Below are positions 18,076 through 60,344 of a DNA stretch of 64,000 bases, piece by piece (position 1 is the stretch's first letter; each line of letters opens with the position of its first letter). A program made the translations under genes and the position numbers. The notes under the pieces were generated by a model. That model was not told the DNA's origin, did no database searches, and was given only the letters and a program-made list of their open reading frames with translations. The DNA is taken from the IMG/VR virus record IMGVR_UViG_3300035696_000002. One strand, given 5' to 3'. The DNA comes from a virus. Lineage: Duplodnaviria; Heunggongvirae; Uroviricota; Caudoviricetes.

Positions 18076-20109
18076 TTATTCTCTTGTGCCAGCGACAAAC
18101 TTGTATTTCGCAATCATCGAGTCAGTATCAATCGACTCCATGCGGACGAAAACTTCGTACACGAATCCGCCGTTCGGGCCGTCGTGCCATACTGCGGCCT
18201 GTGCCCAAGCGTCGTTGATTGCGTCCTGAATCTCACTGTCGGTGAGTTTGTCCATCAGGTATTTCACGCGGCTTGCGGTGTTGACCGTAGCGAACGCTGC
18301 GAGACCTTCCGGCTTCTCAACGTCGGCAAGTTGCACTTCGCCCATGCCCGGAACTTTGTCCAGCAGCGGGCGGGTGGTGACTTTGAAAGCCGCGATCATG
18401 GTCGCCGCGATTTCGCCGGAGACCTTCTTCAGGAAGAACGAGAACTGCTTGGCCTCATCGGCTGAAGCTGTCTTCACTGAGGCAACCATCAGGGCTTCGC
18501 CGGGGACGCCAGCGTACTGATCGTAGAACTCTTCCAAGAACATCGGCCCACGAATGTCGTTTTCCTTGCGGAGCGGAGCACCGTCAAGAACCTGAGGCTG
18601 AGCATCACGTCCGATGCCAACAGCACCGGGCGAAGTTGAAACAGAGCCGCCAGCCGGGGCAGCAGTCGAGTAGAATCCTGCGGCAATCGGCATGAGGTTT
18701 TCGTTTTCCACCTTCGACAGTGTACCGGGCTCCAGAGCCTCGTCCAGAGCACTCATGAGTTCTTCGGCATCGCCGACGATCTCAGGTGTGAGCATCGGGG
18801 CGTTCGTGGCGTTCGGGTAGTCCACGATCTCGTGCTGAATTTCGGGGTAGAACTCGCGGAGGACTTGGCCGGGGAAGAAGAAATTAAAGCCAGCTTCCTT
18901 CTCAACCGTCTTGTCGTCCTTGGCTACGCCCTGCATGTCGCAAGCGTCTTTCATAACCTCTCCTGATTGTGATCCCATAGATTCAAACCTCTCCTTGGGT
19001 GAGCCCACTACTGTCAAATTTGCAGCGAGCACCTTACCCGGCAACTCTTCACCGTGCCAGTCGATAGACACGAGCTTGGATGAACCAGCAGCATCGGCCC
19101 TTCCAAACTCTTCCACCCCTGTTACAGTTCCCTTGGCGGTCGCCATTGGCCCGGCGTACTGACTGATGGAACGCAGGAAATGCACGGCGTAGCGGACAGT
19201 GTCGCCCACGTTGATCGGCTGATCGTGCTTGCCAGCGGTTCTTACGGGCTTGGGGTCTTTCCACCAAGTCCATGTCTCATGCCCGCAGTCATTGCAGAAA
19301 AGCTTGTCGTACTGGCCGTCGTTAATGTCCTTGGTGTTCATGCCGTTGCATTTCGGGCACTGTCCCTTGGAGGCCTTTTCCAGACCAATCTGATAACGGA
19401 GGTCACCCGCCATCCCGAACGGTGAACGGTTGTGCAACTCAACTTGTGGCTCGGGCTTCCCGGTGACCTTGTCCTTCAAGCCCATCGCCCAGTCCTTCAC
19501 TTTTCCACCGAACTTGACGGACGCTTCCTTGACAAACGCCTTGGCAGCCTTCTCTGACGAGAACTCTGCGGCGTAACGTTCCCCATTGAGGGTGAAGCTG
19601 ACGCTGTGCTTTTCCATATTCGGTGGTGTGCTCAAGTCTGTTCCCCCAAAGAATCCGCCGCCATGGCCGGATGTAATTTTGCTGTCATCTTCGCCGCCAA
19701 TCGGAGGTGTGTTCTCCGAAGCGATGTTGATGATGATCTGCTTGCCCGGCTTGGCATCAATCGTTGTCGATCCTGCGGGGCCTTTATCCGCAACCCACTC
19801 CGCCGCTCCATCGCCGACAGCATCAATCTCCTGCTGTTTCTGGTCGATGGTTTTTCCGATCTCCATCTCAGCCTGAGTTTCAATCGCATCGCGGACAGCA
19901 GAAACGTTCTGACGCTCGGGTGGACGAAGCTCTCCGCCAACAGTCGGCGATCCGCCGTTCATATCGACAGAGTTCTCGACCAGTTCATCGTTGCTCGGCC
20001 CAGCTTCAGGCCCAGCCACGACGGCTGATTCCAACTTCTCGGCAAGATCGTTGTCGCTGTGGATGATGTCAGCACTGCGTTTAACAGTGCGTGCTATCTT
20101 AGTTGCCAT
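18076..20109 (-). CDS. Putative internal head polyprotein
   Basis: Modular 677 aa with KIA/KEA/RTA/KTA junctions, Zn ribbon and SH3-like module. Confidence 0.65.
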   Translation of the reverse strand: MATKIARTVKRSADIIHSDNDLAEKLESAVVAGPEAGPSNDELVENSVDMNGGSPTVGGELRPPERQNVSAVRDAIETQAEMEIGKTIDQKQQEIDAVGDGAAEWVADKGPAGSTTIDAKPGKQIIINIASENTPPIGGEDDSKITSGHGGGFFGGTDLSTPPNMEKHSVSFTLNGERYAAEFSSEKAAKAFVKEASVKFGGKVKDWAMGLKDKVTGKPEPQVELHNRSPFGMAGDLRYQIGLEKASKGQCPKCNGMNTKDINDGQYDKLFCNDCGHETWTWWKDPKPVRTAGKHDQPINVGDTVRYAVHFLRSISQYAGPMATAKGTVTGVEEFGRADAAGSSKLVSIDWHGEELPGKVLAANLTVVGSPKERFESMGSQSGEVMKDACDMQGVAKDDKTVEKEAGFNFFFPGQVLREFYPEIQHEIVDYPNATNAPMLTPEIVGDAEELMSALDEALEPGTLSKVENENLMPIAAGFYSTAAPAGGSVSTSPGAVGIGRDAQPQVLDGAPLRKENDIRGPMFLEEFYDQYAGVPGEALMVASVKTASADEAKQFSFFLKKVSGEIAATMIAAFKVTTRPLLDKVPGMGEVQLADVEKPEGLAAFATVNTASRVKYLMDKLTDSEIQDAINDAWAQAAVWHDGPNGGFVYEVFVRMESIDTDSMIAKYKFVAGTRE

Positions 20110-20117
20110 GATGCTCC

Positions 20118-23100
20118 TTACGGTTTCTGGCTGCCCACATCGGGCAACGGCTCTTCGGTTACGAGGTCTCCAAGGTAGCCTGCACCAAGATCAATCGGAG
20201 TTTCCTCACTGACATCGTCTCCCGCTGCGGCCTGTTTTTCATCGCTTGCGACTGCGAGCAGTTCCGGCACGGCCTCGGCCATTTCGCCGATAGCTGCCGG
20301 GCTGATCCCGCCCCCGCCGCTCTGATTCTGCTCTTGACCCTCGGGCTCAGGATGAGTGCTCATACCGTGCCCAGTGTCAACTACCGTGTCGGCGGTCTTC
20401 TTGCTGCTGCTCTTTCCCGAGTAATCCGGGACAACAGCGGGCTGCGGCGTGACTTCTGCCGGGCCAGAAGGTTTCTGACCGAACATTTCTTTCACCTTCG
20501 CGACGCCCTGTTCGAAGCTGCCATCCGCGTTGTAGCCCCAACCGCTGTAGCGTTCTTTCTTGCCGTTGAAGTTGATGACGCATAGTGCCGTACCAACGCT
20601 TTCACCGTTCGACATGTTACCCCAGTGGTAGCCCATGTCCCACGTGTTTGCCCCGTCACTGCCCTTCAACATGCCGCCACGGACGTACTCTGCGTTTACG
20701 CCAGCCGCCGTCAACTCACGCTGAATTTTCTTCAAGCTGTTGTAGGTGTAGCGAGCCTTTTCCTGCGGAGTTGCACCACGGCCTGCTTCGAAACGGATAC
20801 CAGCGAAGCGAGCGAAGTGTTCCGGGTTGACCGTTTTCTCGGCCTCCGGCTCATCCGCCATTTCGGACTTGTTGTAGTCGAGTTCCGACTTGGCTTCCGC
20901 CATGTCGCCGCTGATGTCAGCAGCAACCTTCGGGAACTGCATACCAGCCGCGTTACCGCGACGAGTGTAGAACGCCCGGATCGGGGCCAATGCACGGAGG
21001 AAATCCTTTTCCGTGATCTCAGCCTGAGGAGCATTCGTGTAGCGGTTACGCTGATTCTCTTCGCCGCGACGCAGGAGTTCCATCATCTGCTTCGCTGCCC
21101 GAGAAGGCGGCTGCCAGTAAGCCCAGCCATCGCTATGGCTGTTGACTTCGTCCATGAAATCCTTCATGAAGCGGGCTGCTTTACCGAGAACCGGGTCGTT
21201 GGCGAACCGCTGAACCGCTTCTTCGATGTCATACTGATTCATCCATGCAGTTTTCATGGAGCCAGTCACGTCGAACTTCGGCGTTTCACCTTGGGTGTCG
21301 CTGATGTCGGCCTTAGCCTTGTTCTCAATCGCACCCTCGCCGCCCTTTTCGTTGGCCGGGTTGTCTGCGGTATCGGCCTGTTTTTCTTGCTCAGGTGCTC
21401 CCGCTTCCGGCATCCAGTTGTCAAGGGCGTCGTACCAGTTCTTATCGACATCCTTGAAGCCACGAGCCTTCGCAATCGCCCTGAGGGCTGCTTCAATCTC
21501 AGGCTTCGTGTAGGGGTTGCCCGTGCGGTTTCCGCCCGTGACCCACTTCAACAGGTCGTACAGGACGCGATCAGGAATCTCCATCGCAACCTTGGACGCA
21601 GTGTTCTTGATTTCCGGCCCGCTCGTGTCTTTCACGTCAGTCCGGTTCTTGACTTCGATTGCACCGGAACCACCCGCCTCGTTGGCCGGGTTGTCTGCGG
21701 TGTCGGCCTTCTTCGAAGAGCCCGTCACGTCGTACTTCACAGTCGTGCCGTGCGTGTTCTTGATGTCGGCATCGGTCTTGTTGACGATGGCACCTTCGCC
21801 GCCCTTTTCGTTGGCAGGATTGTCGGCAGTGTCGGCCTGTTTTGTCGAGGCGTCGATGTCGAACTCTTCTTCACGAGGAGCAATCGGGCTCTCGCGATCT
21901 ACCCAGTAGGTGCCGCAGTTGCCGCACTGCCACTCACCCAGACCGGACGAGGAGCTAACGTGGTAAATGCGTTCATCCTTCGGCAGATCAAGACCGATAG
22001 GCTCTGAGCAGTTCTCGCAGTAGTTGACGTTATCCCACGAGTAGGCACAGACTGCACCGCAACGACCGCATTCAACGGCGTCGCCGCTGTCAAGGAGTTG
22101 TTCCTTGACCTGCTGTATGTCTACTTCATACCCCTCTGGATCAAGACCGAGGTCTGCAAGTTTGCCGAGACCCATTCCGATGCCAGCCATGTCGTCGGAA
22201 CCTGATTTGTTGCGGTTCCGAATAGCGGCGAAGTCGATACGCTGACCCGTGCCTTCGCACTGTGGGCAGTTGTCACGCTGGACACCCGGCTTGCAGGTGC
22301 AGGGTTGACCCGTCTTAGGCTGATATTCGGCCTTCTTGGACTCTTCGCTCTTGGACTTACCGCGATTCTTCGCCCACTCAGACTTTGGCCCGCTGTCTTC
22401 CTTGGCTTCAGGCGTCGAATCTTCCTGTGATTCTGCTTCGGAGTCAGACATCGACTTCGTGTCCTCAGGTTCGTCGCTCTTCATCTCTTCCGAGACGTGA
22501 GCTTCGCCATCCGTCGAGGAATTCTGACCGCCGTCGTTGCCGACCGGAATCAGCGGGGCAGGCCCGATGTCTTCCGTGATCGAATCCCAGATTTCATCGA
22601 GATCGACCGCTACGTCAGCTTCCTTGCGGAGGGTTGCGAGCTTGGCTTCTTTTTCCTGAGCAGCCTTTTTCGCCTTGGGCGACATTCCAACATACGGATC
22701 GTCGATTTCTGTTCCGATGATGTCGGCGATGTACGATGCCTGATGGGCAGCCGCAGACTTCAGCGTAGGCGTTGTGCCCCACTTGTCAGCGTCAATCTCA
22801 CCAGCATCCTTGCGGAAGAACTGGATCGCGAGCTTTACGGCACGCAACTTGTCAGTTGCCGACTTCGAGAGCGGCTGTTCGCCGTACCCGCCCGCCGCAA
22901 CTTCCCTTGCGTGGTCTTCGAGTGCCTGATCGGCCTGTTTGTCGCTGCCGAGAGTGGCACAGAAGGCCTTGATCCCATCCGGGTGCTCACGTTCGACGTA
23001 ACCACCGTTGCGGAATCTGTCCATTTCGAGCTTGGAGAGGTTGCCCTTTGCGTTGGTGCCCGGACGAATGTCCATTGTCGGCAACATACCCTTCGTTCTC

Positions 23101-24755
23101 TTCGCAACTTTGCGTTCCTCTTCGCCGCGACGAGCCACACCAGTTTCGTCAATCGCGATACCGATTGGGGCCTCGCCCTTGCGGACTTCGACCTTCTCTT
23201 CAACCGCCTTGACCATGCCTTCTTGTGCTTCTGCGGCACCAGTGCCCGGCCCGACGTTCGTGACCGGAGTTTCATGGGCAGCCGGGACGACGGAATCAGG
23301 AGTGGAACCGTGCTTGTGCGATTCCATGTTCTTCAAGCCTTCTTCAGCTTCACCCTTGGAGTGGAAACTTTCCAGAATCTTGTCGGTGTTGTGCTGCTTA
23401 ATGACCCACGGAGCGGATTCACCCTTTGAATTGGTGTGGCCCGGAACATGGGAGACATAGGCGACCTTGGCAGAGCTTTGGTGCGTCTTCAATCTGCTCT
23501 GTGTGACAGGGGCGTCGGCACCAACTGTCAGCGTGCCTTCGTTGTCGTAGTTGACGGGCTGGTCTTTGTACGCTTTGCCGACCTGATCGTAGAACACGTA
23601 GGTGTCCGTGTCGGGCTTGTATTCCATTTCCAGACCCATGGACTGTGCGATCTCGGCCATGTTCAGGTCAAGACGCTGCTCAAACGCATCCATGTACCCA
23701 CGCGGGTTCTTCTTTTTCATGTCCGCGTGAATCGCGTTCAGCTTGTCAATGATCGTTTGCAGGACATCCGCACCGCCCGCCATACCAATGCGGGTTTCGA
23801 TGGAGGCTGCTTCCTTGGATTCGCCCTTTTCTTCCTTTTTCTCGGAGCCGAAAGGCGGAGCTTGCTTCCCACCGAACGGTTCCTTGGCGGCTGCGGCACG
23901 CGGCACGCTTTCGCTTGTCGGCGGCTTGAAGCCCTTCTCGCCAACTTCGCCCGGCGTTACGCTGTTCGGCAGCAAAGACTGACGGAGAGCCTGATCGAGG
24001 GAGTCGAATACGTCCATCTCCTGCGGTTCAAGGACTTCCTGCGTCACTGCATCAGCAGTTTTGGCGGTCAGGAAGATTTTCTTCTTTGCAGTCGCGGCCT
24101 GCTTGAGCAATTCAGGGAACTGCTTCAGCGGATTTTCCGCGAGGAACGGGAAATTCATTTTCGGGGTGATGTCGGTCACGTCCAACTTGGTCGTGTCAAC
24201 AACCGTCATCAAGGCCTCAAAAGCCGAAGACAGGCGAGGATCGAAGTACGCCGCGAACACGATGTGGCGAAGCAGGTTCGTCAGCTTCGTGATATCATCC
24301 GTGTACTTGAAGTACTGGTACTCACGCTTGTTCATCCAGTTCGGTGCGAACAGGACGATGGATTCATACTTGCCATCGACGCTCTTGAAGAGCTTGTCCT
24401 TGATGGTCTGCAAATCGCCCTTGCTGTACTCGTCGAACTCGGTCTCGCCGATCTTGTGTTCGATCATGTCGGACATTTCTTCGCCGCCGAACTCACGCAT
24501 GAGGACGCCGTAGAGCAGGGAAGTCGGGAAGGTGTCGAGATTATCAGCAACCTTGGCAGGAACAATGAAGATGCGACCGATGGAGATGTTCTGGCGGAAT
24601 CCGCGATAGAAAACTTCGACAGACTGAGTATCGCCAGACGAACGGGCTTCCTTTTCGCCTGCCCTTACGGCTTCGGTGACTTTGGCCAACAGGTCTTCGC
24701 TGACAGCGAAGCTCTGGAATGATTTCAATGCGAGACTGTTTCCACTTGGAGCCAT
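20118..24755 (-). CDS. Putative internal head polyprotein (1545 aa)
   Basis: Folded N-terminal domain followed by many short modules separated by K-x-A motifs. Confidence 0.7.
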   Translation of the reverse strand: MAPSGNSLALKSFQSFAVSEDLLAKVTEAVRAGEKEARSSGDTQSVEVFYRGFRQNISIGRIFIVPAKVADNLDTFPTSLLYGVLMREFGGEEMSDMIEHKIGETEFDEYSKGDLQTIKDKLFKSVDGKYESIVLFAPNWMNKREYQYFKYTDDITKLTNLLRHIVFAAYFDPRLSSAFEALMTVVDTTKLDVTDITPKMNFPFLAENPLKQFPELLKQAATAKKKIFLTAKTADAVTQEVLEPQEMDVFDSLDQALRQSLLPNSVTPGEVGEKGFKPPTSESVPRAAAAKEPFGGKQAPPFGSEKKEEKGESKEAASIETRIGMAGGADVLQTIIDKLNAIHADMKKKNPRGYMDAFEQRLDLNMAEIAQSMGLEMEYKPDTDTYVFYDQVGKAYKDQPVNYDNEGTLTVGADAPVTQSRLKTHQSSAKVAYVSHVPGHTNSKGESAPWVIKQHNTDKILESFHSKGEAEEGLKNMESHKHGSTPDSVVPAAHETPVTNVGPGTGAAEAQEGMVKAVEEKVEVRKGEAPIGIAIDETGVARRGEEERKVAKRTKGMLPTMDIRPGTNAKGNLSKLEMDRFRNGGYVEREHPDGIKAFCATLGSDKQADQALEDHAREVAAGGYGEQPLSKSATDKLRAVKLAIQFFRKDAGEIDADKWGTTPTLKSAAAHQASYIADIIGTEIDDPYVGMSPKAKKAAQEKEAKLATLRKEADVAVDLDEIWDSITEDIGPAPLIPVGNDGGQNSSTDGEAHVSEEMKSDEPEDTKSMSDSEAESQEDSTPEAKEDSGPKSEWAKNRGKSKSEESKKAEYQPKTGQPCTCKPGVQRDNCPQCEGTGQRIDFAAIRNRNKSGSDDMAGIGMGLGKLADLGLDPEGYEVDIQQVKEQLLDSGDAVECGRCGAVCAYSWDNVNYCENCSEPIGLDLPKDERIYHVSSSSGLGEWQCGNCGTYWVDRESPIAPREEEFDIDASTKQADTADNPANEKGGEGAIVNKTDADIKNTHGTTVKYDVTGSSKKADTADNPANEAGGSGAIEVKNRTDVKDTSGPEIKNTASKVAMEIPDRVLYDLLKWVTGGNRTGNPYTKPEIEAALRAIAKARGFKDVDKNWYDALDNWMPEAGAPEQEKQADTADNPANEKGGEGAIENKAKADISDTQGETPKFDVTGSMKTAWMNQYDIEEAVQRFANDPVLGKAARFMKDFMDEVNSHSDGWAYWQPPSRAAKQMMELLRRGEENQRNRYTNAPQAEITEKDFLRALAPIRAFYTRRGNAAGMQFPKVAADISGDMAEAKSELDYNKSEMADEPEAEKTVNPEHFARFAGIRFEAGRGATPQEKARYTYNSLKKIQRELTAAGVNAEYVRGGMLKGSDGANTWDMGYHWGNMSNGESVGTALCVINFNGKKERYSGWGYNADGSFEQGVAKVKEMFGQKPSGPAEVTPQPAVVPDYSGKSSSKKTADTVVDTGHGMSTHPEPEGQEQNQSGGGGISPAAIGEMAEAVPELLAVASDEKQAAAGDDVSEETPIDLGAGYLGDLVTEEPLPDVGSQKP
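21260..21845 (-). repeat. Three intragenic copies of K-x-A-DTADNPANE(K/A)GG(E/S)GAI
   Basis: gttggc(c/a)gg(g/a)ttgtc(t/g)gc(g/a)gt(a/g)tcggcct near 21351, 21681 and 21810. Confidence 0.85.
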
Positions 24756-25283: not shown

Positions 25284-25285
25284 GA

Positions 25286-27145
25286 TTACTCCACGTCCAA
25301 TTTGTACGTGCCGTCCATCTCAACTTCCGCACGTTCCGGGCCGTCCATCGGGATATCCTGCTGCACCGCTGGCCCCATCAGATCGTACTCACCGAGGATG
25401 GCACGCCCGTCTTCCGGGGCACCAGCCGCAGTCTTGTGATTGGACGATGCCTTGTCCATTCCGGGATAGCTCAACAAAGTTCCGCCCGTCAGGCCGCAAT
25501 GCATGCCGCTGCGATATGTGCACGATCCGCACTTTTCCGCACCGATGATCGGATTGTGTACGCCCAACTTGTTCTTGAGGTACGTGCAATCAATCTGGCT
25601 CAGAGCAACCTTGATTGGCTTGTCTTTCAACGAAGCGACGAACTTGCGGCATGCTGCACCCGCCTGCTCGGCCCCGACCTTGTTGGCGGCGGCTTCGTAA
25701 ATTGCTTTCATGCCGTAGCCCTTGTTGTGCAACCGCTCAACATCAGCGGCGGCAAACTTGTACACGGCCTTCTTCGGCTGTTCCTTACGTACCGTTTCAA
25801 TGGTGCGTTCCTGAGATGCCGCCTGTTTTTCCTGCGGCAGAATGCTCATCGGACGCTCAAACGGCTTTGTCGTTACTTCCCGAACCTTGCCGAAATGGCT
25901 CTCACAGCTTGCACACTTGGCACTGCTCTGGAAAGCAGCGTTGCGGATGCCCTTCTTGGCGAGGAATTCGAGGTCGCTTTTTGCGACCACAATCCGGCCC
26001 GCGTCATCCTTGCGGAGTGAAGCGACAAAGTTCTTGATCGCTTTGCTCACATCCACATCGTTGAACTTCTCGCTCGCCCATTTGTAAATGCGGTCGAGGC
26101 TGGCTCCGGCTGCGTGCAGCTTCATCACGTGACTGGAGTCGAAAACAACTTTCGATGTTGCACGCTTCACACGCTCGGCCTGCTTGATGTCATACCCTTC
26201 AGTACGGGCAATCGCTGAACTGGTCTTCGGCGGCAGGACTTGCATGTCGGTGCGATTTGCGATCTGCACCAGTGCCGCACGCTTGTTCTTGTTCGGCACG
26301 CCCGGCGTCAAGAGGTTCACGATATGTGAAAGCTCGGCTGTGTTCGCTACAACTGGAAGGTGGTACAAATTACACGACTTGCCTGATGCGTCCTTCTTGA
26401 AGTAAGAGCAGTCGGTGCACGCTGAAATCTGTTTTACCGACTTGGCCTGCGGCGTAATGCCTGCCTGCTTCCATTGGTTATGCTGGCGGACACAATCATT
26501 GCTGCTGACGCTGCTGTTTTTGCCGCGAGGAGCGTCCTTCGGCATGTAAGTATTCGGCTCCAGATATGCCAAGCCCATGAGCCCGGCGTTACGCTGGAGG
26601 TAGTCCGTTGACATCTGGTGATTGAACACCTCAAGATCAGCGGCCATCTTTTCGATGATCTGTGCAACCTTCGCCGGAGATGTGCCCTGATTCAGCAAGT
26701 CCCTCACGTACTTCAGAGCTTGCCCATCAGTGATGCCCGTCGAGACGCTGTTCTCTTTGAAGTTTGGATCGGCCTTCTCAAGATTCATCGTCACTTCGTC
26801 CATCAACGACTCGTTGTCGCCGTAGGAATTCTTGTAATCCTCAGGCCGGGTTGTCGCAGTGCGACGCCAGTCTGAGGGGACTGAACTCACGTGTGGGGCA
26901 GCCTTTTCTTTTTCGTACAGGCGTTCACGAAGAACTGAACTGGTTCTCGGGCCGATAATAGGCGTGTGGTGAGAGGCCGACTCAGCGATTTCATCCATGA
27001 AATCCTTGTCCACGTACTGGTGCGTGCGGTTAAGCTGCTCCTCACCGGAGTCCTTGGCCTCGGCGAGATCGAGGTCTTTCCAATCGGGCTCGCGTTCATC
27101 CAAGAGTGCGTCGATAATGCTTGAGTAGGGTTTCTTCTCTGCCAT
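25286..27145 (-). CDS. Cys-rich putative head protein with internal repeats
   Basis: Repeated CxxC...C clusters and duplicated V..LH..G.....IY..A..K...A...FVASL helices; K/R-x-A junctions. Confidence 0.65.
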   Translation of the reverse strand: MAEKKPYSSIIDALLDEREPDWKDLDLAEAKDSGEEQLNRTHQYVDKDFMDEIAESASHHTPIIGPRTSSVLRERLYEKEKAAPHVSSVPSDWRRTATTRPEDYKNSYGDNESLMDEVTMNLEKADPNFKENSVSTGITDGQALKYVRDLLNQGTSPAKVAQIIEKMAADLEVFNHQMSTDYLQRNAGLMGLAYLEPNTYMPKDAPRGKNSSVSSNDCVRQHNQWKQAGITPQAKSVKQISACTDCSYFKKDASGKSCNLYHLPVVANTAELSHIVNLLTPGVPNKNKRAALVQIANRTDMQVLPPKTSSAIARTEGYDIKQAERVKRATSKVVFDSSHVMKLHAAGASLDRIYKWASEKFNDVDVSKAIKNFVASLRKDDAGRIVVAKSDLEFLAKKGIRNAAFQSSAKCASCESHFGKVREVTTKPFERPMSILPQEKQAASQERTIETVRKEQPKKAVYKFAAADVERLHNKGYGMKAIYEAAANKVGAEQAGAACRKFVASLKDKPIKVALSQIDCTYLKNKLGVHNPIIGAEKCGSCTYRSGMHCGLTGGTLLSYPGMDKASSNHKTAAGAPEDGRAILGEYDLMGPAVQQDIPMDGPERAEVEMDGTYKLDVE

Positions 27146-49936: not shown

Positions 49937-49965
49937 GGTAATGGTTTCTCCTGTTTCCTGTTTCC

Positions 49966-50746: not shown

Positions 50747-53002
50747 TTAGAACTCGTCGCGACCGAACAGGGCCGTGGCAATGTCAACAGGCTTTGCATC
50801 CGGGGCAGCGGGCTTGAGCCGCTTGATAACCGGGGAAGCTGTCTTGGCAACTGCGGCCTTCGGCTTCGCAGCCGGGGCCTTAGCAGCAGACTTCGGGGCC
50901 TGCAATTCGTTGGTTGCGTCCTGCTTGGTACGAACCGCACCCTGCTCTTCAGGAGTGATCTCTTTCAGAGCCTCATCGAAGAGGTCGTCCTTGTGATCGC
51001 TCTCGTTGTCGCGAGTGTCGTTCTTGGCTTCGTCAGACTCGAAGTGCTTTGCAGCTTCGCTGAAGGACTCAACAACGTCCATACCAGCGACCTGCTCGGC
51101 AGTCTTGATCTCAGAAGCAATCAGGCTGGCAAGAGGATCGGCGTCAGCACCTTGCAGGGAGAAGAAATCTTCCATGCTGGCCATCTGAGTGCCTTCCAGT
51201 GAGGCCTCCATCTGCTCGGCAGATGTCGGGCCAAAGTAGCTGTCCATACCACTGGACTCGCCCTCATTGGCAAGAGCGGACTTCTTCTCTTCCATGTTGC
51301 CGCTGTCGAACACGCTGGCGAGGTTAAGCTCACCGGACATGTCCTCTTCTTCAGCGGGCATCTCTTCGTCCATGACGATCTCAGCTTCGCCTTCGGCCTC
51401 AGGCAGTGCAGGCTGTTCGGCGTTTTCGGTGAGAAGTGCCTGTTCGATGGCAGAGATTGCGTCCTTGATTTCCGCAGCCTCTTCCATGACGATTTCCGTC
51501 TTTTCGTCGGTAATCATCTCGGCAGTTGCGTCGGCGGACGGCGGAGCCATCTCGTCGTGCATCGGAACTTCCTCGGCAGGCGGTGCATCCATCGGGGCTT
51601 CGGCAGCCGGAGCTTCGGCAGGAGGTGCATCCATCATCGGCTCTTCAGCCGTCTTCACAGAGGCGTGCTTCGAGCACTTCTTGTCGCCCTTGCATTCCTT
51701 GCACTCAGCAGCGGCCTTCTTTTCGGCAGCACACTTGTCGCAACCTTCGCAGTTGGCACCGTGAGCACACTTGGCAGCGGCAGACTTCTTGCACTCGTCG
51801 CAGCCCTTGCAGTCCTTATCGTGAGCGGTCTTCGGCTTGGCAGATGCTTCCTTGCCAGCCTTGTCGCCTTCGGACTTGTTGACGGTGTCCATCGGGCGGT
51901 GCTCAGCTTCAGTCTGTGACTGAGGAGAACCCGCATCCATTGGCTTCGGCTCGGAAGCAGGCCCGCCGCCGTGACCACGACCATCGTTGTAGGTCTCGGT
52001 CTGCGGCCCAGCGTCCTTGCGGTCGTCGGCAGTCTTCGCGGCAGTGGCGTTCTTCGCCTCGCCCTTGAGTTCTTTCTCAACGGCAGCACGTTCGGACTTG
52101 AGGATGGATGGATTTTCGAGTAGGTCGTTCAGTTCAACCTTGTGGACTTCCTTGAACTGTTCCGCGATCTTGGTGTAGTGGGCATTCTTTGCGGTCTGAC
52201 GGAGGGCGGCGTTGAGAACCTTTGTCTGGTTCAAAAGCAGATTGGCAGCAAAACTCTTCTGCACGTTTGCCGGGGCATCGGGCAGCATTGTTTTCGCAAT
52301 AGTCCATGCCGAGGCCACGCGAACTTGTGCTTCTTTCTTGATCGCCTCACGCTTCGTTTTGATTTCGGCGAGCTTCTTTTGAACGTCAGTTGCCATAGTG
52401 GAGCCTTCCTTTTTTGTCTCAGAAGAGGCAGAAATGCCCTTCTTATCAGGGGATTGGTAGCTGTTTTTCTTGCTTGCTGAGGATTGAGAAGCCATCGGGG
52501 GCTCCAAAGGAGCGGGTTCGGCGACTTCAGGGGCCGCTTCAGCGGCGGGTGGTGCAGGAACTTCTTCGACTGGGGCGGCTTCAGGAGCCGGGGCCGGAGC
52601 AGCCGGGGCAGCCAACTCAGGTGCCGGAGGTGCAGCCGGGGCAGGAGGTGCTAAGGGTGCCGGGGGAATCCCCATACCGCCCTCGGGCTCGCCGCCTGCG
52701 ATGCCTGCGATCTCGGGGTCGATATCAGACAACAGCCGCTTGATCTCTTCAGACCACTGGCCGTTCTTCAGCTTCTCCCACTCGGAGATAAGCTGAATGC
52801 CCTCACGCATTTTGCGGATTTCTTCTTCAAGCTGTTCACGCTTGTCCGCCAGCATGTCAAATTCTGGGGATGTGCCCATGCCCAAACCACCGCCCATCGG
52901 CGGCTCTGCCATCTCGGGCATACCCATAAGCTGATCGTCGATCATGTCGAGTTCAGCCTGCTTACGATCCAACGCTGCTTGTACCTTTTTCAAGTTTGCC
53001 AT
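50747..53002 (-). CDS. Capsid scaffolding protein
   Basis: Acidic, Ala/Pro-rich coiled-coil protein between protease and MCP; many K-x-A sites. Confidence 0.7.
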   Translation of the reverse strand: MANLKKVQAALDRKQAELDMIDDQLMGMPEMAEPPMGGGLGMGTSPEFDMLADKREQLEEEIRKMREGIQLISEWEKLKNGQWSEEIKRLLSDIDPEIAGIAGGEPEGGMGIPPAPLAPPAPAAPPAPELAAPAAPAPAPEAAPVEEVPAPPAAEAAPEVAEPAPLEPPMASQSSASKKNSYQSPDKKGISASSETKKEGSTMATDVQKKLAEIKTKREAIKKEAQVRVASAWTIAKTMLPDAPANVQKSFAANLLLNQTKVLNAALRQTAKNAHYTKIAEQFKEVHKVELNDLLENPSILKSERAAVEKELKGEAKNATAAKTADDRKDAGPQTETYNDGRGHGGGPASEPKPMDAGSPQSQTEAEHRPMDTVNKSEGDKAGKEASAKPKTAHDKDCKGCDECKKSAAAKCAHGANCEGCDKCAAEKKAAAECKECKGDKKCSKHASVKTAEEPMMDAPPAEAPAAEAPMDAPPAEEVPMHDEMAPPSADATAEMITDEKTEIVMEEAAEIKDAISAIEQALLTENAEQPALPEAEGEAEIVMDEEMPAEEEDMSGELNLASVFDSGNMEEKKSALANEGESSGMDSYFGPTSAEQMEASLEGTQMASMEDFFSLQGADADPLASLIASEIKTAEQVAGMDVVESFSEAAKHFESDEAKNDTRDNESDHKDDLFDEALKEITPEEQGAVRTKQDATNELQAPKSAAKAPAAKPKAAVAKTASPVIKRLKPAAPDAKPVDIATALFGRDEF

Positions 53003-53919
53003 TATCGCCTCAGGTGCCCTTTTGGGTCTTCGTCCAGAAGAACGTCGCCTACTGTAAGGGCTTCAAAGTCAGTCTTTTCCGAGGCCGCTTTGGCGAAGGA
53101 CGCAGTATTAGTGGCTTCCTCCAAGGCTGCCTTCCGGGTGTACGGGGATTTCGGCCCCATCCACTCATCCGCCACGATGTTCCGTTTGGCGGCTCCGGGG
53201 AAGGCCGGGGTTGCTACCCAGCTTGCTTCCACGAACTTAACCCCACCGTTTTCCATGGTTTTGTGGCCGCAAAGTTCAGCGACCCGGCGTGCGACGCCGT
53301 CATCGTCCGCAAGGAACATGCCCTTCTGGAACGACAGGTGGTTGCAATAAGTGTTCTGATCGGTGACGTGGGCTCCGCAATAAGAGCAGATGACGAGGTC
53401 AGTCACGCAGCCCATGGACAGGTAGCGGACTTTGCCTTCGCGGATATCGTTCACCAGCTTCTCGTGCGTCATGTCGGTCGCCACGAGGATGTCGCAGAAG
53501 TAAACCCAGATTTGCTCTTCGGGAACGATCTGGACTTTACGAAGGACGGCATCGAGGATGTGCCCCTTCGCGTACTTGGAATTCTGGAAGTGTTCGACGA
53601 AGTTGAAAGCCCCGACGAAACTGCGGTGCGACAGCTTCAACACCTCGTTCGTCCATGCGTCATCGTTGTTGTTTACGAGGTGACTGCATTCCGGCTTGAT
53701 GTGATAGTCAAACGGGTCTGCCTCGGTCATGACCGAGGACATGATCGTGCAGTGCGACAAAATATACTTCGAGGAGTCCGCAGCGAACTTCGAGAACGAC
53801 GCGGTCTTGTGCCCGAACGTGCGGGTGCCGTACATCTTGTCCCAATCGGGAACAGAGAGAGTGGGCTCCTTCAATTCGGCGTTCGCGTATTTCTTGAAAG
53901 CTGGTTCTTTTTCGGACAT
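53002..53919 (-). CDS. Prohead (capsid maturation) protease with Zn-finger insert
   Basis: NNNDDAW, FVEH (His), LSMGC (Ser), CSYC...CNH, FVEASWVATPA; start re-called to MSEKE. Confidence 0.82.
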   Translation of the reverse strand: MSEKEPAFKKYANAELKEPTLSVPDWDKMYGTRTFGHKTASFSKFAADSSKYILSHCTIMSSVMTEADPFDYHIKPECSHLVNNNDDAWTNEVLKLSHRSFVGAFNFVEHFQNSKYAKGHILDAVLRKVQIVPEEQIWVYFCDILVATDMTHEKLVNDIREGKVRYLSMGCVTDLVICSYCGAHVTDQNTYCNHLSFQKGMFLADDDGVARRVAELCGHKTMENGGVKFVEASWVATPAFPGAAKRNIVADEWMGPKSPYTRKAALEEATNTASFAKAASEKTDFEALTVGDVLLDEDPKGHLRR

Positions 53920-53942: not shown

Positions 53943-56900
53943 TTAAAGTGTATAAAAAACGCCACAATCAAGGCATTCTGCCAGTATCGGCCCTAGATCG
54001 TTGGACTTAGCTTTGTCGCTATCGGCTGCAATGGCCTTTGCACTCTTACACATCGGGCACTTCGGAGCGTCTGCCGCTTCCTTGGAGCCAAAGTGCTGCT
54101 GCCCCTCAAACCAGTCGTTCGTGTACTCTTCGCCGACTTCTTTCCAAAGCTGATTCATGTCGTAGCCGTTCTCTCTGGCAACCTGAATCATCTCGCCGTC
54201 TTGCATGAAAGCTTCACGAGCCTGCCGCTTAACATCGCTCACCTGATCCAAGAAATGTTCGTCCTGCATGTCGAGGTAGAGGTCGTCTTCCCCGCTGGCC
54301 ATCACATCGAGCGTGTGACCGTTCTCATCCGGCTTCGGGGCGGGTTTGGGGAACTCAAAGTTCGTGACCTTGATGATGACATCGCCCAGATTCAGGTAAC
54401 CGACGCGGTCGATTTCGTTAATCTGGTGCTGTGTGATCGGCCCCCAGTTCTCATTGATGATCGGAATCGCTTTGCCTTTGTCGCCGACATACCAGCGACC
54501 AATCTCAGTCTTGCCATCCGGCTCAAAAGCGTACAGCTTCCAGTTACCACGACGTTTCGGAAGTATCTCTCCCTCCAATGCAGCCGCATTGACTGTCTTC
54601 TTGGGGCCGGAATCCTGAGGGATATCGTCGTACACACCTTCCATGATTTCTTTCTTCAGCGATTCATCGAGGTGACCACGTGAGTCATCGCGAGGTGGTT
54701 TGTAGCTGGGAGAATGCAACGGATCAATCTTCGCTTCCTTCTGAGACGATTGCACGCCAGTCACCGGGCCGTTGCCCTCCATCAGATCGTTCGCAGCAGC
54801 ATCAGCCTCAGGATCATCCGACGCCCCACCCGGATTTGCGGTGCCGCCAATCGGCGTACCCATGCCATAACTCTTCTCGACGATGTCGGCAAGCTTTACG
54901 GATTGACCAGCAACCACAGCCTTAATCAGATCGGAAGTCACTGGAGTGACGCCGACAATCTGCTCAGGCTTGATGGCTCCGACAGCCTTCAACCATTTTC
55001 CTTGAGCCCCGGCCTGACCCATCGGATCGGCAGTATCCTGCACCCATTTTTCTTTGCCGGGAGTGAATGAGACGACAGAAATCTTGCCCGTCCCCATGGA
55101 CTTGTTGAAATCCCAATCCATTTTTCCGGCCCAGCGGACAGCATCAATCGGGTTGTTGAATGCGAAAATTTCGCCTTCACCGTAACGCTCATCGCTCTCG
55201 CCCTTCACCCAGTTGGAGGGCTGGAGCGGGAGAATGCCTTTCGCCTGAATGGCGGGCACTTTTTCTGTCTGAGTTACGTGGTAGAGTTTTTTAGCGGCGG
55301 ATTTCGCGAACGGATCGCTGCCGTCGCAATTCGAGCACGTCTCCACGAAGGATGAGACTTTCGGTGCGGAGCAACGGCACGTTTGCACGTTACCGCATTT
55401 GCGGCAAGTAGTTTTTTGATGATGGCACGATGCAGTCTTGTCTTGACCAAGAGCCTCTTTCAGTTTCTCGTGGAATTCACGGACGGCAGCCTGCTTATCG
55501 ACTCCTGTTGGCCGCACAAATGTGCAGCAATCATCGTTGTCAACTTCGATTGTCCCATCCGGCAGTTTACGATCTGCCAGTTCAGGATCGGCCATCACTG
55601 TTGGATGCTTGCACGAGTCAACCATTTCACCAGCCGCATTCTTGGAGTGGGGTGTGCGGTGAATGCAATCCATACACGAGAACGGCCCGCCGCCTGCGAA
55701 GCCGGACATCTTAGTACCCAGCACAGTCAGTTCCGCTCCCTTTTCTGCAACCTTAGCCGAGGCTTCCTTGGGGTCGTTGATTCCGGGCACAATTCCATGA
55801 TCCCAATTCTTGCCGCAATCGTTGCACTTGGCGGTCTCGAAATCGGAGGGCATCAAACCATAATCTGTCGAACCACAATGCGGGCACTTCGGTTTCCCCG
55901 CAGCTTGCTTCCCTGTGAGTCGTTCCAACTCTTCCCGTGCCTCACACGTTTCGCAATCGCAATCTTCTCTGCCAGTGCCTTCGCAGTCGCCCTGTGCGAG
56001 CCCTTCGAGTTGCACGCGATACATTCTGTCGAGCATATCCGGGCTTAACTGCGGTGCATTCATCGCTTGCTTCTCTGCCCCCTGCCTCACGGAATTCAGC
56101 CATGCGGTGCCGTCTTCCGTAGTCATGCCATGGTCGATTTTCTTACCGGGATAAGCTTCTTTCAATTTTTCGTAGAGCTTGGTCGCGATTCCTTTGCGAC
56201 GGAAATTTGGTCTCACGGACAAATACTTGATGCTGATTTCATCCCCGACAACGGAAAAGTTAAGCTTACCCACGCACGGAGCTTCCGGCGAAGCCTCCCC
56301 GTAAGTCGCGTATACAGCACCAAAATTTTCACCCCTGTAGCTGTCGTGGATATCGTCCCAGTAACGGAGCCCGGCGACGATGTCATCGACACTTTTCTCG
56401 GTCTCCAATGCGGCGGTTTTGCTGCGGGAGGAGAGTTGCTGCGACAGAGTATTCAGCGGGCCAGAGTCATCGACCGCTCCGTTGGTCTGGTGCTGCCACG
56501 TCTGAGCTTTTGGATTGACGACAACCCGCTGATCTTTTCCCAAGGCCCACATCAGGGTGCCATCGGAAACACGGCCAACGAATTTGTATCCGTGCTTGTT
56601 CAGCACATCATGCAGGTTTTCATCGGGATCGCTTTCCTTGAAGAAGGTTGCGTCCTGAACCCCCTCAGGGGATTTGGGCAGGTTGGGATCGTTTACGACT
56701 TTGACAGGCATAGCGTCCACCGAGGCTGTGACGGTAGGTGCAGCATCGGCGGGTTCAGCATATTCTCCGTACTCGTCGCCGCACCAACTCTCATACTTCT
56801 CATCGCTGAGTTCCGGGTGATACCAGCCATACTCATGGCCCCGGTAGTTGTCGTAGCCCCACGGATCGCGGATTTTCTTGATCTGGCGACCGCAATGTTT

Positions 56901-57116
56901 GCACGTGGCGGTGTCAGCCGGGGCGGAAGCTCTGATGTCTTTGGGCGGGATAATCACGGGTGGAATGCGATTCGACTCCGGCTCCGTACCCTTCTCACCC
57001 CACGGCTTCCGGTAGTTCGGCGGCTCCGCGTGATGCTGGTGGGTCGCGTAGTCTGGATCGTTGAACATCTCCAGCAGTGCGTCCATGCCCTTTTTCTTGA
57101 AAAGTGGGGAGTTCAT
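53943..57116 (-). CDS. Putative internal head polyprotein with GNAT, ART-like and Zn-finger modules
   Basis: VRPNFRRKGIATKLY (GNAT), LYHVT....PAI...GI.P (ART-like), several CxxC modules and K-x-A junctions. Confidence 0.75.
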   Translation of the reverse strand: MNSPLFKKKGMDALLEMFNDPDYATHQHHAEPPNYRKPWGEKGTEPESNRIPPVIIPPKDIRASAPADTATCKHCGRQIKKIRDPWGYDNYRGHEYGWYHPELSDEKYESWCGDEYGEYAEPADAAPTVTASVDAMPVKVVNDPNLPKSPEGVQDATFFKESDPDENLHDVLNKHGYKFVGRVSDGTLMWALGKDQRVVVNPKAQTWQHQTNGAVDDSGPLNTLSQQLSSRSKTAALETEKSVDDIVAGLRYWDDIHDSYRGENFGAVYATYGEASPEAPCVGKLNFSVVGDEISIKYLSVRPNFRRKGIATKLYEKLKEAYPGKKIDHGMTTEDGTAWLNSVRQGAEKQAMNAPQLSPDMLDRMYRVQLEGLAQGDCEGTGREDCDCETCEAREELERLTGKQAAGKPKCPHCGSTDYGLMPSDFETAKCNDCGKNWDHGIVPGINDPKEASAKVAEKGAELTVLGTKMSGFAGGGPFSCMDCIHRTPHSKNAAGEMVDSCKHPTVMADPELADRKLPDGTIEVDNDDCCTFVRPTGVDKQAAVREFHEKLKEALGQDKTASCHHQKTTCRKCGNVQTCRCSAPKVSSFVETCSNCDGSDPFAKSAAKKLYHVTQTEKVPAIQAKGILPLQPSNWVKGESDERYGEGEIFAFNNPIDAVRWAGKMDWDFNKSMGTGKISVVSFTPGKEKWVQDTADPMGQAGAQGKWLKAVGAIKPEQIVGVTPVTSDLIKAVVAGQSVKLADIVEKSYGMGTPIGGTANPGGASDDPEADAAANDLMEGNGPVTGVQSSQKEAKIDPLHSPSYKPPRDDSRGHLDESLKKEIMEGVYDDIPQDSGPKKTVNAAALEGEILPKRRGNWKLYAFEPDGKTEIGRWYVGDKGKAIPIINENWGPITQHQINEIDRVGYLNLGDVIIKVTNFEFPKPAPKPDENGHTLDVMASGEDDLYLDMQDEHFLDQVSDVKRQAREAFMQDGEMIQVARENGYDMNQLWKEVGEEYTNDWFEGQQHFGSKEAADAPKCPMCKSAKAIAADSDKAKSNDLGPILAECLDCGVFYTL

Positions 57117-58044: not shown

Positions 58045-58074
58045 AAGGGCTCCCTTCCGGGAGCCCTTTTTGTT
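58045..58074 (+). terminator. Intrinsic terminator (possibly bidirectional)
   Basis: aagggctccc/gggagccctt followed by TTTGTT. Confidence 0.85.
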
Positions 58075-58097
58075 GGTTGGTAATCGTACTGCTAGGA

Positions 58098-58784: not shown

Positions 58785-58964
58785 ATTGTTTCTCCCTGCC
58801 CGATAAAAACGGGCTCTAACTTACCCTGCGTAAATTGCCAACGTAAAATCGCTGGCGAAAACTTCGGGGAACGTCTAACCTTCGTTCCATTTCATCGCAC
58901 GTAACTAACGGCCCTAAGGCAGTGAAACTCCAAGCACGATGACCCGGCTTTTCGTCCCCCGAAC

Positions 58965-60344
58965 TTATTCTGCGGCTGCTGCTACTGACAGGCCGAGGAA
59001 GGAACTCTTCTTACCCTTGACCTTGGCTGCCGCTTCTTCCGATTCTTCTTGGCTCTGCTGCTTCGCGAAGACCTTCACGGCTTCATCGAACATGTCGCCA
59101 GCCTTGTAGATGCCTTCGACGGCCTCACGCACCGGGCGGGAGTCGTTGACTTCCGTCAGGGCCTTGGCTTCGAGGTACATCCCCTTGAGTTGACCACCAA
59201 ACTTCTCGGCTTCCTTAGCAGCCTTGGCAGCAGACATCGCAGCCAGCTTGATTGGAAGCTCTGTGTCCTTGGTCAGCGGGCTGAGCGAGGCCGGAGCCAA
59301 ATCAACCGCTGCGTGGGCCTGTGTGACTTCCTTGATCGCACTGCCCTCGGTCACGTCGCCAGTTGACTGATCCCACGTGAAACCACCACCGCCGCCAGCG
59401 ATCTTCTTCACCTGTGAGATGAAAGTCTCAGCAGCAGCCTTGATGGCAGCCGAGGACTTCTCGTTGTGAATCTTCCACGCTGTGGCATAAGCTTTGTCCG
59501 GCTCGCCCGGATATTCGCTCTTCAACTTGTGCATCGTCTCTTCGCTGATGCCCGGAGGCGTCACAGCAACCTTGGAGGAGGCTGCCATCGGCATCGGTGC
59601 CGCTGCGGCAGGCTGTTCCTTCGGCTGAACTGGACGGCTCTTCAGAATTTCAGTGACTTCGATCAGTGCGTCCTGAAGCTGCTTGTTCGATTCGAAACCT
59701 TCCACCTTGGGAAGTTCTTCGACGATCTTGAGGATCAATTCGGTAGGCAGGGCTTGCAGAGTACCCTTCGATCCAGCCACAGGGCCGGGAGCCGGGGCAG
59801 GGGCGGGAGCGGGTGCGGGAGCCGCAGCAGCCGGGGCCGCAGGAGCGACCTCAGGAGCAGCTTCCTTCTCTTTCTTCTTGGCAGCGACACGAGGAACGGT
59901 GACCTGTTCCGGGGTCTTGGGCTTGCCGCTTTCGTCGCGATCAGTCGTAAACCAATCGGAGCCAGCCGCCTCTTTTTCGTCGGAAGCCATCGCAGGCTGC
60001 CCCACCGGGGCTGGCTGCTGAGTGACCTTTCCGGCCTGTTGTTCCCTACGCCACTTTGCAATCATATTGACCTCATTTTTGATCTGGTTTGCCACTTCCG
60101 GCATCTTCTTGTCGTCCAGATAATCGTACAGCGTTGCCGCACCTTCACCCTGCATCTGCTCGGGCTGTGTGTGCAAAACATCGGACAGGTGCTTCACGAT
60201 TTGTGAAAGCTGTGCCGCCCGTGGGTCGCCATCTGCTTCCCATTGACGAGACAGAGATTCACCAAACTGAACCGCCTGTTCCAGCGTCTCCGGGGAGACG
60301 GCAACATCTGCATTCTTTCGCTGTGCAATCAACTTCGATGCCAT
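58965..60344 (-). CDS. Putative internal head polyprotein
   Basis: KNA/KEA/KVA/KIA/KLA junctions; PPG...KAYATAWK module; Pro/Ala linkers. Confidence 0.65.
   Translation of the reverse strand: MASKLIAQRKNADVAVSPETLEQAVQFGESLSRQWEADGDPRAAQLSQIVKHLSDVLHTQPEQMQGEGAATLYDYLDDKKMPEVANQIKNEVNMIAKWRREQQAGKVTQQPAPVGQPAMASDEKEAAGSDWFTTDRDESGKPKTPEQVTVPRVAAKKKEKEAAPEVAPAAPAAAAPAPAPAPAPAPGPVAGSKGTLQALPTELILKIVEELPKVEGFESNKQLQDALIEVTEILKSRPVQPKEQPAAAAPMPMAASSKVAVTPPGISEETMHKLKSEYPGEPDKAYATAWKIHNEKSSAAIKAAAETFISQVKKIAGGGGGFTWDQSTGDVTEGSAIKEVTQAHAAVDLAPASLSPLTKDTELPIKLAAMSAAKAAKEAEKFGGQLKGMYLEAKALTEVNDSRPVREAVEGIYKAGDMFDEAVKVFAKQQSQEESEEAAAKVKGKKSSFLGLSVAAAAE

Follow-up and report, generated by a model that had tools for sequence, protein, structure and literature searches.

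A Lys-x-Ala motif marks module junctions in the giant head-region proteins of a huge phage and is a candidate recognition signal of its prohead protease

This study concerns a 64,000-nucleotide stretch (the window) from a virus of the Caudoviricetes, IMG/VR record IMGVR_UViG_3300035696_000002, and a short motif, Lys-x-Ala (K-x-A), in the giant proteins encoded around its head genes. The motif is specifically enriched in these head-region proteins, is maintained across the phage lineage to which the virus belongs and falls at the boundaries of modules and of folds. These observations support a functional role for K-x-A in head maturation, as a junction or a cleavage signal. On sequence comparison, K-x-A↓(A/S) is probably the recognition motif of the prohead protease encoded at 53002-53919, a reading to which a probability of about 0.65 is given. 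Cutting would then be carried out by this protease inside the head, and the products would enter the host. The window, in which almost all genes lie on the minus strand, was taken from one contig of a soil phage (463,033 bp, 55% G+C), where it spans bases 143,749-207,748.

Enrichment of K-x-A in head-region proteins

Eight open reading frames (ORFs) near the head genes, which have their lower coordinates at 18076, 20118, 25286, 31303, 32512, 50747, 53943 and 58965 and encode 677, 1545, 619, 395, 1758, 751, 1057 and 459 amino acids, respectively, had been flagged in an earlier note on this DNA as chains of unrelated segments delimited by K-x-A. All eight of the junctions quoted there are present in the ORFs named. 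Together with the protease, the flagged ORFs contain 133 K-x-A words where 69-74 are expected from shuffling (z 7.4-8.6). The excess survives when the residues are shuffled only within blocks of 20 or 40 amino acids (z 7.4 for the 20-residue blocks), and the narrower pattern K-[TQEVSK]-A occurs 77 times against an expected 27. In the same proteins the reversed word A-x-K is not enriched (76 vs 72), KA and AK are flat and K..A shows a weak excess only (88 vs 68-72, z 2.2-2.6); taken together, the control words A-x-K, KA, AK, K..A and A..K give z values of -2.6 to 2.6. The remaining 42 ORFs of the window hold 50 K-x-A words, with 42 expected.

When all residue pairs separated by gaps of 0-3 were scanned without bias, K.A came out as the strongest gap-1 word. 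C..C alone outscored it, and this word has its source in zinc-binding knuckles. No motif of the x.E type emerged from the word scan; the residue at P1 is Ala, unlike that of the x-x-Glu motifs. Across the genome (536 ORFs of at least 80 amino acids) the five highest K-x-A scores, of which that of the 1545-residue ORF comes first, belong to the 1545-, 619-, 1758-, 751- and 1057-residue ORFs, which are also the only ones among the 33 ORFs of at least 600 amino acids to reach a ratio of about 2 (counts for each ORF are given in Table 1). Other large Lys-rich ORFs have ratios of 0.5-1.5. The valid control for such counts is shuffling. It had been claimed that about 25 K-x-A in the 1545-residue ORF contrast with 2-3 in the tail sheath or the 1775-residue adhesin; the counts hold (29, 2 and 3), but the contrast is compositional, and it is uninformative because the sheath and the 1775-residue ORF contain 1.4-1.5% Lys and are expected to have 1.6-2.2 K-x-A each.

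Maintenance of the motif in related phages

Megablast of the window against known phages gave no match. By capsid protein and protease, the nearest named relative is Tunturiibacter phage Tunturi_5 (309 kb, Acidobacteriota), with identities of 69.5% and 56%, and the uncultured 485-kb phage LR745208 is also among the nearest. Bacillus phage G shows 34% and 28% identity for the same two proteins, and the cluster C mycobacteriophages are more distant relatives. At least 159 stretches with a relative of the capsid protein are present in IMG/VR, of which the best 80 (83-95% identity) were used. The gene order of cargo ORF, protease, 751-residue scaffold-like ORF, 209-residue ORF and capsid protein is the same in the window, in Tunturi_5 and in the metagenomic relatives.

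The top three K-x-A scorers among the 311 ORFs of Tunturi_5 are gp332, the ORF at 302827-304518 and gp328, followed by the 'DarB-like' gp350. Of these, gp332 lies directly after the protease gene, gp328 is annotated as a 'DNA ejection protein', and the ORF at 302827-304518 aligns with the 619-residue ORF of the window, the relatives of which were found with a two-sequence alignment as query, a single-sequence query having found none. Among words with a gap of one, K.A again ranks first when the head-region ORFs of phage G (35 vs 15.6) or of LR745208 (58 vs 28.7) are scanned. In mycobacteriophage Alice, the 1511-residue gp90 (11872-16407 of locus L116), whose N-terminus is the protease, has 19 K-x-A where 8.8 are expected. 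When gp81, gp89 and gp90 of Alice are pooled, R-x-A is raised too (40 vs 25.6). The cluster C mycobacteriophages would offer a cultivable system for testing the candidate K-x-A code.

For the metagenomic relatives, ratios were calculated for each protein class from the non-redundant ORFs of about 90 loci. All head classes keep an excess of K-x-A, of 1.4-3.0-fold. It is highest for the protease (2.99-fold, 176 vs 58.8), followed by the classes of ORF 25286 (2.17-fold, 173 vs 79.6), ORF 20118 (1.96-fold), ORF 50747 (1.80-fold, 728 vs 404 in 45 orthologues), the capsid protein (1.78-fold), ORF 53943 (1.73-fold) and ORF 18076 (1.69-fold). The 256 unmatched ORFs of the same relatives (77,845 amino acids) give a ratio of 1.04. 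An artefact of composition or low complexity might be suspected, given the high Lys and Ala content of the flagged proteins, but it is refuted by the local shuffles, the control words, the other Lys-rich large ORFs, the genome ranking and the classes of the relatives, which leave it a negligible probability.

The extended preference around the motif is alike in the window and in Tunturi_5, with Lys at P3, Gln or Thr at P2, Ala at P1 and Ala or Ser at P1'. Glu or Val at P2 and Asp at P1' are additional preferences of the window, and Lys at P2 is one of Tunturi_5. Ser is enriched about 2-fold at P4-P7 in the window, and is enriched at P4 and P7 in Tunturi_5. The codons used for the motif Lys and Ala match the background (p 0.34 and 0.88, respectively), and selection therefore acts on the protein and not on the DNA; a recombination signal at the level of the DNA is ruled out by the same result.

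Coincidence of K-x-A with module and fold boundaries

The orthologues of the 1545-residue ORF range from 1116 to 2249 amino acids and share an N-terminal region of about 290 amino acids that is 60% identical. Beyond it they share cassettes, which occur in another order or in the neighbouring gene. Nineteen of the 29 internal starts of homology blocks in this ORF fall on K-x-A, as against two of 29 on A-x-K. When all homology breakpoints are considered, 45% fall on K-x-A compared with 16.5% under the null, a value reached in none of 5000 randomisations. The breakpoints of the 1057-residue ORF behave similarly (37% vs 17%, P 0.014). The gene at this position in the relatives encodes 379-1952 amino acids and has only isolated cassettes in common with that of the window, despite capsid proteins that are 83-95% identical. 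The turnover of modules, named as a check in the earlier note, is seen in both ORFs. Domain boundaries coincide with K-x-A at many homology breakpoints, at profile ends and, for one cassette, at the edges of an AlphaFold model. The homology blocks mostly start at the Lys of the motif, and the tag therefore moves with the downstream cassette.

Individual modules can be delimited by their matches to known families. In the 1545-residue ORF, position 1 of the phrog_22197 profile aligns to residue 1172, right after the KTA at 1168-1170, and small genes of Arthrobacter and Microbacterium phages match from residue 1171-1172 onwards. In the 1758-residue ORF, positions 8-120 of the 137-position profile phrog_17808 correspond to residues 570-679, a match that extrapolates to the interval between KVA 563-565 and KEA 694-696. 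The 1057-residue ORF contains a GNAT acetyltransferase module (Acetyltransf_1, 25.4 bits with the cut-off at 20.7) that is delimited by KTA 233-235 and KQA 349-351, and the same module sits in a different giant protein of Tunturi_5. A 47-residue zinc-ribbon cassette of the 1057-residue ORF is found at other positions in the proteins of relatives, with K-x-A at both ends (for example in locus L095). Three 'DTADNPAN' spacer repeats in the 1545-residue ORF also carry K-x-A at both ends of each, and a 70-residue module lies between repeats. Pfam and PHROG searches with single cassettes and with the conserved terminal domains gave almost nothing beyond the GNAT module and weak zinc ribbons, and in BLAST the giant ORFs showed no paralogy between their N-terminal domains. 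CxxC is found 31 times in the flagged proteins against 1.6 expected (ORFs 20118, 25286, 50747 and 53943), many cassettes being zinc ribbons of about 45 amino acids.

The boundaries are most sharply defined for residues 608-743 of the 1057-residue ORF. An exhaustive search with this ORF found 908 relatives, most of which match only residues ~606-743. In an alignment of this region (A4) the first conserved strand, 'LYHVT', is preceded by just one to a few residues in the free-standing homologues, which have 119-180 amino acids, and a cut KSA↓AKKLYHVT would begin the module of the window at this same point. Relatives with several modules read KTA↓AS, KTA↓SQ, KIA↓SK or KTA↓GQ at the same point, and the C-terminal end reads KLA↓D. 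An AlphaFold2 model of residues 556-800 has a pLDDT of 86-96 for residues 606-745 only and below 60 on both sides, and both K-x-A sites are therefore placed exactly at the edges of the fold. Foldseek matched the model to Tpt1/KptA (E 1e-4), then to DarT and toxin ADP-ribosyltransferases, so that the predicted fold of residues 608-743 is ADP-ribosyltransferase-like. A feature search gave a weak PARP lead; Pfam assigned no family to the module, and a PDB sequence search returned nothing.

An ORF of 3341 amino acids at genome positions 127168-137193, ~6.5-16.6 kb before the start of the window, contains further modules preceded by K-x-A, and the system therefore reaches beyond the window. These modules include KTA↓KTVLYHGS, a second ADP-ribosyltransferase-like module of the LYH type, and IKSA↓TGNTGAFD, which also occurs in two giant proteins of Tunturi_5.

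The position of the motif at junctions could be explained without cutting if K-x-A were a docking peptide that binds the scaffold or the interior of the capsid, or a linker convention carried along with shuffled cassettes. The movement of the word with the downstream module, most homology blocks starting at Lys, would fit such a role, and some sites, as the spacer repeats demonstrate, have arisen by duplication of existing ones. The flanks of most sites are nevertheless unrelated and the codons carry no signal at the DNA level. The word is also kept at fixed positions amid flanks that are 26% identical, and it is present in the protease and the capsid leader at the classical positions of self-processing and maturation (see below). 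An uncut linker or docking signature is for these reasons considered decidedly unlikely.

The prohead protease and the conserved head proteins

The protease coordinates proposed in the earlier note are correct, the ORF beginning with an ATG that is preceded by GAGGG. Among the tblastn matches of the protein are gene products annotated as prohead proteases in Tunturi_5, Rhodococcus phage E3 and Erwinia phages. No Pfam family was found for the protease, and a PDB sequence search returned nothing. A comparison of its AlphaFold model (pLDDT 58) with 48,161 chains in VIA-align placed T4 gp21 first (Z 6.0, r.m.s.d. 3.4 Å for 122 residues) and the varicella-zoster virus protease (VZV, 1vzv) third (Z 4.9). 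The resemblance of the modelled protease to the T4 gp21/herpesvirus assemblin fold is suggestive, but not conclusive.

In an alignment of 25 protease sequences (A2) K-x-A is invariant at alignment residues 5-7 and precedes the catalytic core in all 25, despite insertions and deletions. After the core the sequences read FAKxA↓S, with Met in place of Lys in five of the 25. Invariant Ser and His residues include S50/H51, H105, S109, H115 and S163 (A2 numbering). The alignment also contains an invariant C-x2-C ... C-x-H insertion that resembles a zinc ribbon (C173, C176, C187 and H189 in A2); to our knowledge, no such insertion occurs in proteases of the gp21 type. In one relative (locus L033, 3301-5460) the first 221 amino acids of a 719-residue ORF are the protease, which may reflect a fusion or an artefact of assembly or frameshift.

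The leader of the major capsid protein reads MANLSRTQQQTAMLGQLLKTA↓GGRQKLA↓AS, with sites at LLKTA↓GG (49874-49882) and QKLA↓AS. Among the metagenomic relatives this stretch hardly varies, and the corresponding sequence is LLKSA↓A in Tunturi_5 and IKTA↓A in LR745208. The K-x-A reported earlier in the protease and the N-terminus of the capsid protein are hence present, and at conserved positions. The portal gene lies outside the window at genome positions 356715-359267, ~149 kb past its end and far from the head module. It encodes 850 amino acids compared with 564-648 in LR745208 and phage G, has KTA↓K and KTA↓GG within its first 84 residues, and contains an unmatched middle part with several K-x-A.

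Between the protease and capsid genes, the 751-residue ORF can be aligned over its full length in 33 orthologues. Three of its sites, at residues 14, 323 and 450, recur in 32-33 of the 33, even though the flanks at 450 are only 26% identical. A dense cluster of Cys surrounds residues 400-450. As the protein aligns end to end it is no chain of unrelated modules, contrary to what had been proposed, and by analogy it is better read as a scaffold that would be degraded like T4 gp22 than as cargo. The 209-residue ORF next to the capsid gene contains no K-x-A and occupies the position of the decoration protein gp26 in phage G, and from this position it would be a decoration protein rather than a scaffold.

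Cleavage at K-x-A might instead be the work of a different peptidase, encoded by the phage or by its host, the prohead protease being the probable cutter. Yet conserved copies of the motif flank the catalytic domain of the prohead protease and occur in the capsid leader, and the protease is the most enriched of all classes (2.99-fold). No peptidase domain, metallopeptidases included, was found in the flagged ORFs with Pfam and PHROGs, although most modules have no family and one could escape such a search; the enriched protein of Alice is itself a fusion of the prohead protease. A different cutter is accordingly very improbable.

Proposed processing and points against it

If K-x-A is the cleavage signal of the prohead protease, the motif recognised would be K-(Q/T/E/V)-A followed by Ala, Ser or Asp, often with Ser at P4-P7. 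Inside the procapsid, the protease would trim itself on both sides of its catalytic domain and remove a leader of ~21 amino acids from the capsid protein; the portal would probably be trimmed too, and the 751-residue scaffold-like protein would be chopped into small pieces. Three or four giant cassette arrays (20118, 25286, 32512 and 53943) would be cut at their module junctions. The products set free would include the GNAT acetyltransferase, the ADP-ribosyltransferase-fold domain, zinc ribbons and many uncharacterised modules, and short spacers such as the 'DTADNPAN' repeats would be excised and discarded. The conserved N- and C-terminal domains of the arrays may serve for loading or anchoring, with the variable middle as exchangeable cargo. 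Loading into the head and injection are suggested by gene context, by the computed annotations of Tunturi_5 and by analogy.

A broader proposal is that the lineage of phage G, Tunturi and Bixzunavirus possesses a cargo code that can be read from sequence, in which cassettes tagged by K-x-A would be movable among a few carrier genes and each would be released in the capsid by the head protease. Three or four genes would then suffice to load and inject dozens of effectors, among them acetyltransferases, enzymes of the ADP-ribosyltransferase fold and zinc ribbons, and for uncultured huge phages the injected proteome would become predictable from sequence. This proposal is tentative, with odds somewhat below even. 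Within it, the equivalence of the released cassettes to their free-standing homologues is suggested with the same reserve.

Several observations weigh against the protease reading. The AlphaFold model of the protease is poor, a Z of 6 is a middling structural match, and Foldseek found no significant match for the model (5jbl, E 0.6). One K-Y-A lies inside the invariant core of the protease, and the capsid protein of phage G has no K-x-A. Some junctions of the 1545-residue ORF, near residues 485-492, 853-857 and 1315, are without K-x-A. In the 619-residue ORF the Lys and Ala columns of the motif are no more conserved than other Lys and Ala, and in the 751-residue ORF only the motif Ala is more conserved by column (p 0.017). 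Once composition is corrected for, enrichment is borne out for five of the eight flagged ORFs and fails for those at 18076 (z 0.3), 31303 (z 1.1) and 58965 (z 0.6). Chance would account for about half of the K-x-A words, leaving an excess of ~57 sites, and cutting at every K-x-A would yield fragments of 1-10 amino acids. A search of the accessible literature for experimental data on the clade found none.

As about half of the words are expected by chance, the statement that every K-x-A is cut is unsupported. A more restricted explanation is that K-x-A is a genuine cleavage signal that is used in part: terminal propeptides would be removed and the scaffold degraded, following the pattern of T4, phiKZ and SPN3US, with most internal sites uncut or partly cut and the cargo remaining as large 'polyvalent' proteins. 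This would be in keeping with the modest column conservation of single sites and the many sites expected by chance, and with phage SPN3US, in which 42 of the head proteins stay uncut and nearly all of the mapped cleavages free an N-terminal propeptide (PMC10052503). However, the ~57 excess sites lie mostly inside the arrays, at junctions where free-standing homologues begin or end, and the spacer repeats have a site at both ends. Partial use is therefore judged unlikely, though it is the least unlikely of the alternatives. The earlier claim that the protease cuts the giant proteins at K-x-A is partly supported, by the specificity, recurrence and junction position of the motif, by its conserved sites in the capsid leader and around the protease domain and by the suggestive likeness of the enzyme to gp21 and assemblin; the support does not extend to cutting at every K-x-A, to the 751-residue ORF as cargo or to the three ORFs that lack enrichment.

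Comparison with known processing systems

A close parallel for the proposed processing is T4, whose single head protease reads one short motif that it shares with the capsid protein, the scaffold and the packaged internal proteins. The T4 substrates are gp23, the scaffold gp22, the internal proteins IPI-III and Alt, which carry a capsid-targeting leader, and the motif is (L/I)-x-E↓. The T4 scaffold is cut at many sites, as the candidate scaffold here would be, and gp21 is the best structural match to the modelled protease. T4 differs in that its protease cuts after Glu and in that its internal proteins are small and single with one leader site, rather than chains of some dozen cassettes.

Herpesvirus assemblins cut (V/L/I)-x-A↓S. 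The assemblins (UL26/VP24; VZV 1vzv) share with the system proposed here Ala at P1 and Ser or Ala at P1', release themselves at flanking sites and cut the scaffold. Going by established knowledge of their specificity, they differ in having a hydrophobic P3 (V/L/I) where Lys is found here, and herpesviruses have no cargo arrays.

The proteases phiKZ gp175 and SPN3US gp245 also belong to jumbo myoviruses and cut many head and ejection proteins at a three-residue motif. One propeptide may hold several such motifs, as that of gp53 does (PMC10052503). Their motif is, by contrast, (S/A/G)-x-E or A-x-E, cutting mostly removes N-terminal propeptides, and cassettes are not shuffled at the motif. That lineage is moreover unrelated; the capsid protein and protease described here group with those of phage G, Tunturi_5 and the cluster C mycobacteriophages.

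The arrays resemble the 'polyvalent proteins', giant late phage proteins with disparate domains that include GNAT and ADP-ribosyltransferase domains (Iyer et al., 2017; PMC5512222). These were predicted to be packaged and injected, and their processing was ascribed tentatively to peptidases within the proteins themselves, either zincin-like metallopeptidases or an assemblin-like domain at the C-terminus (PMC5512222). The 1057-residue ORF similarly carries a GNAT and an ADP-ribosyltransferase-fold domain, in addition to weak zinc-ribbon matches below the cut-off. A junction motif does not form part of that description, whereas here a head protease acting in trans through a K-x-A code is proposed and no embedded peptidase was found with Pfam and PHROGs. 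In Alice the protease is fused to an array, unlike the separate protease gene of the window.

Short-motif head proteases and multidomain 'polyvalent' virion proteins are both known already. They are not known to have been connected by a readable junction code, and a search of the accessible literature found no publication of the K-x-A motif. New would be the Lys-x-Ala specificity in the lineage of phage G, Tunturi and cluster C, together with the role of the motif as the point at which exchangeable cassettes are linked. If K-x-A is a cut site, the set of proteins packaged, and probably injected, by a huge soil phage lineage could be listed from sequence. Hundreds of orphan small phage proteins would gain a context as capsid cargo, and the exchange of cassettes at protease sites would explain how the toolkit of early infection changes fast while capsid genes remain 85-95% identical. 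Phage G, Tunturi 5 and the cluster C mycobacteriophages are members of this lineage that can be cultivated; because they exist and mass-spectrometry data on phage G virions have already been collected, the reading is directly testable.

Features of the window

The coordinates of the features discussed are collected in Table 1. Two arrays of the window are split into pairs of ORFs (20118 with 18076, and 32512 with 31303) that are one gene each in Tunturi_5 and in some relatives. Tunturi_5 gp350 and one gene in each of the relatives L111, L112, L114 and L115 combine the N-terminus of the 1545-residue ORF with the C-terminal ~285 amino acids of the 677-residue ORF. The Tunturi_5 counterpart of the 1758-residue ORF is gp345, annotated as a 'virion structural protein', and in BLAST residues 34-139 of the 395-residue ORF match residues 525-630 of gp345.

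Table 1. Features of the window, with observed and expected numbers of K-x-A where counted
Feature	Coordinates	Strand	K-x-A observed vs expected	Remarks
SNF2-family helicase	6370-8106			Pfam SNF2-rel_dom E 7e-17; 57% identity to Tunturi_5 gene
Large terminase	15118-17166			
677-aa ORF	18076..20109	-	6 vs 5.2	C-terminal part of ancestral gene shared with 20118-24755
1545-aa cassette-array protein	20118..24755	-	29 vs 13.3	conserved ~290-aa N-terminal domain, then shuffled modules
Module, residues 1171-1278 of 1545-aa ORF	20922..21245	-		phrog_22197 and small phage genes
Three 40-43-aa 'DTADNPAN...' spacer repeats	21246..21833 (21705-21833, 21585-21704, 21246-21374)	-		from fragment listing of 1545-aa ORF
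619-aa K-x-A-rich protein	25286..27145	-	16 vs 6.4	internal duplicated module, CxxC clusters
395-aa ORF	31303..32490	-	7 vs 4.8	C-terminal piece of gene that is single in Tunturi_5 (gp345)
1758-aa cassette-array protein	32512..37788	-	19 vs 8.6	N-terminal 184-333 aa alone common with relatives
Module, residues 566-696 of 1758-aa ORF	35701..36093	-		phrog_17808
Major capsid protein	48977..49936 (true ATG 49936; ORF 48977-49993)	-		phrog_2522 E 9.4e-43
751-aa Ala/Lys-rich protein, scaffold candidate	50747..53002	-	24 vs 12.3	between protease and capsid genes; many K-x-A
Prohead (head maturation) protease	53002..53919	-	6 vs 2.3	phrog_18299 'head maturation protease' E 5.6e-16
1057-aa cassette-array protein	53943..57116	-	17 vs 7.5	directly upstream of protease
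ADP-ribosyltransferase-fold module (predicted), residues 608-743 of 1057-aa ORF	54888..55295	-		bounded by KSA 605-607 and KLA 741-743
47-aa zinc-ribbon cassette, residues 406-452 of 1057-aa ORF	55761..55901	-		weak, sub-cut-off Pfam zinc-ribbon matches
GNAT acetyltransferase module, residues 236-351 of 1057-aa ORF	56064..56411	-		Pfam Acetyltransf_1 E 1.8e-5
459-aa Ala/Lys-rich ORF	58965..60344	-	9 vs 7.6	C-terminus resembles Tunturi_5 gp328 ('DNA ejection protein')
Tail sheath	60838-63996			

The SNF2-family helicase is outside the K-x-A finding. The Lys content of the ORFs of at least 200 amino acids is bimodal, 45 of the 224 lying below 2%. Proteins of the tail, fibre and sheath type have 0-1.5% Lys and mostly 0-3% Arg. 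Such low-basic ORFs are found in the window at 38120-38845, 39479-44806, 45492-46745, 10752-12416 and 60838-63996, and many large ones occur elsewhere in the genome. This scarcity of basic residues may reflect life in acidic peat or the avoidance of proteases.

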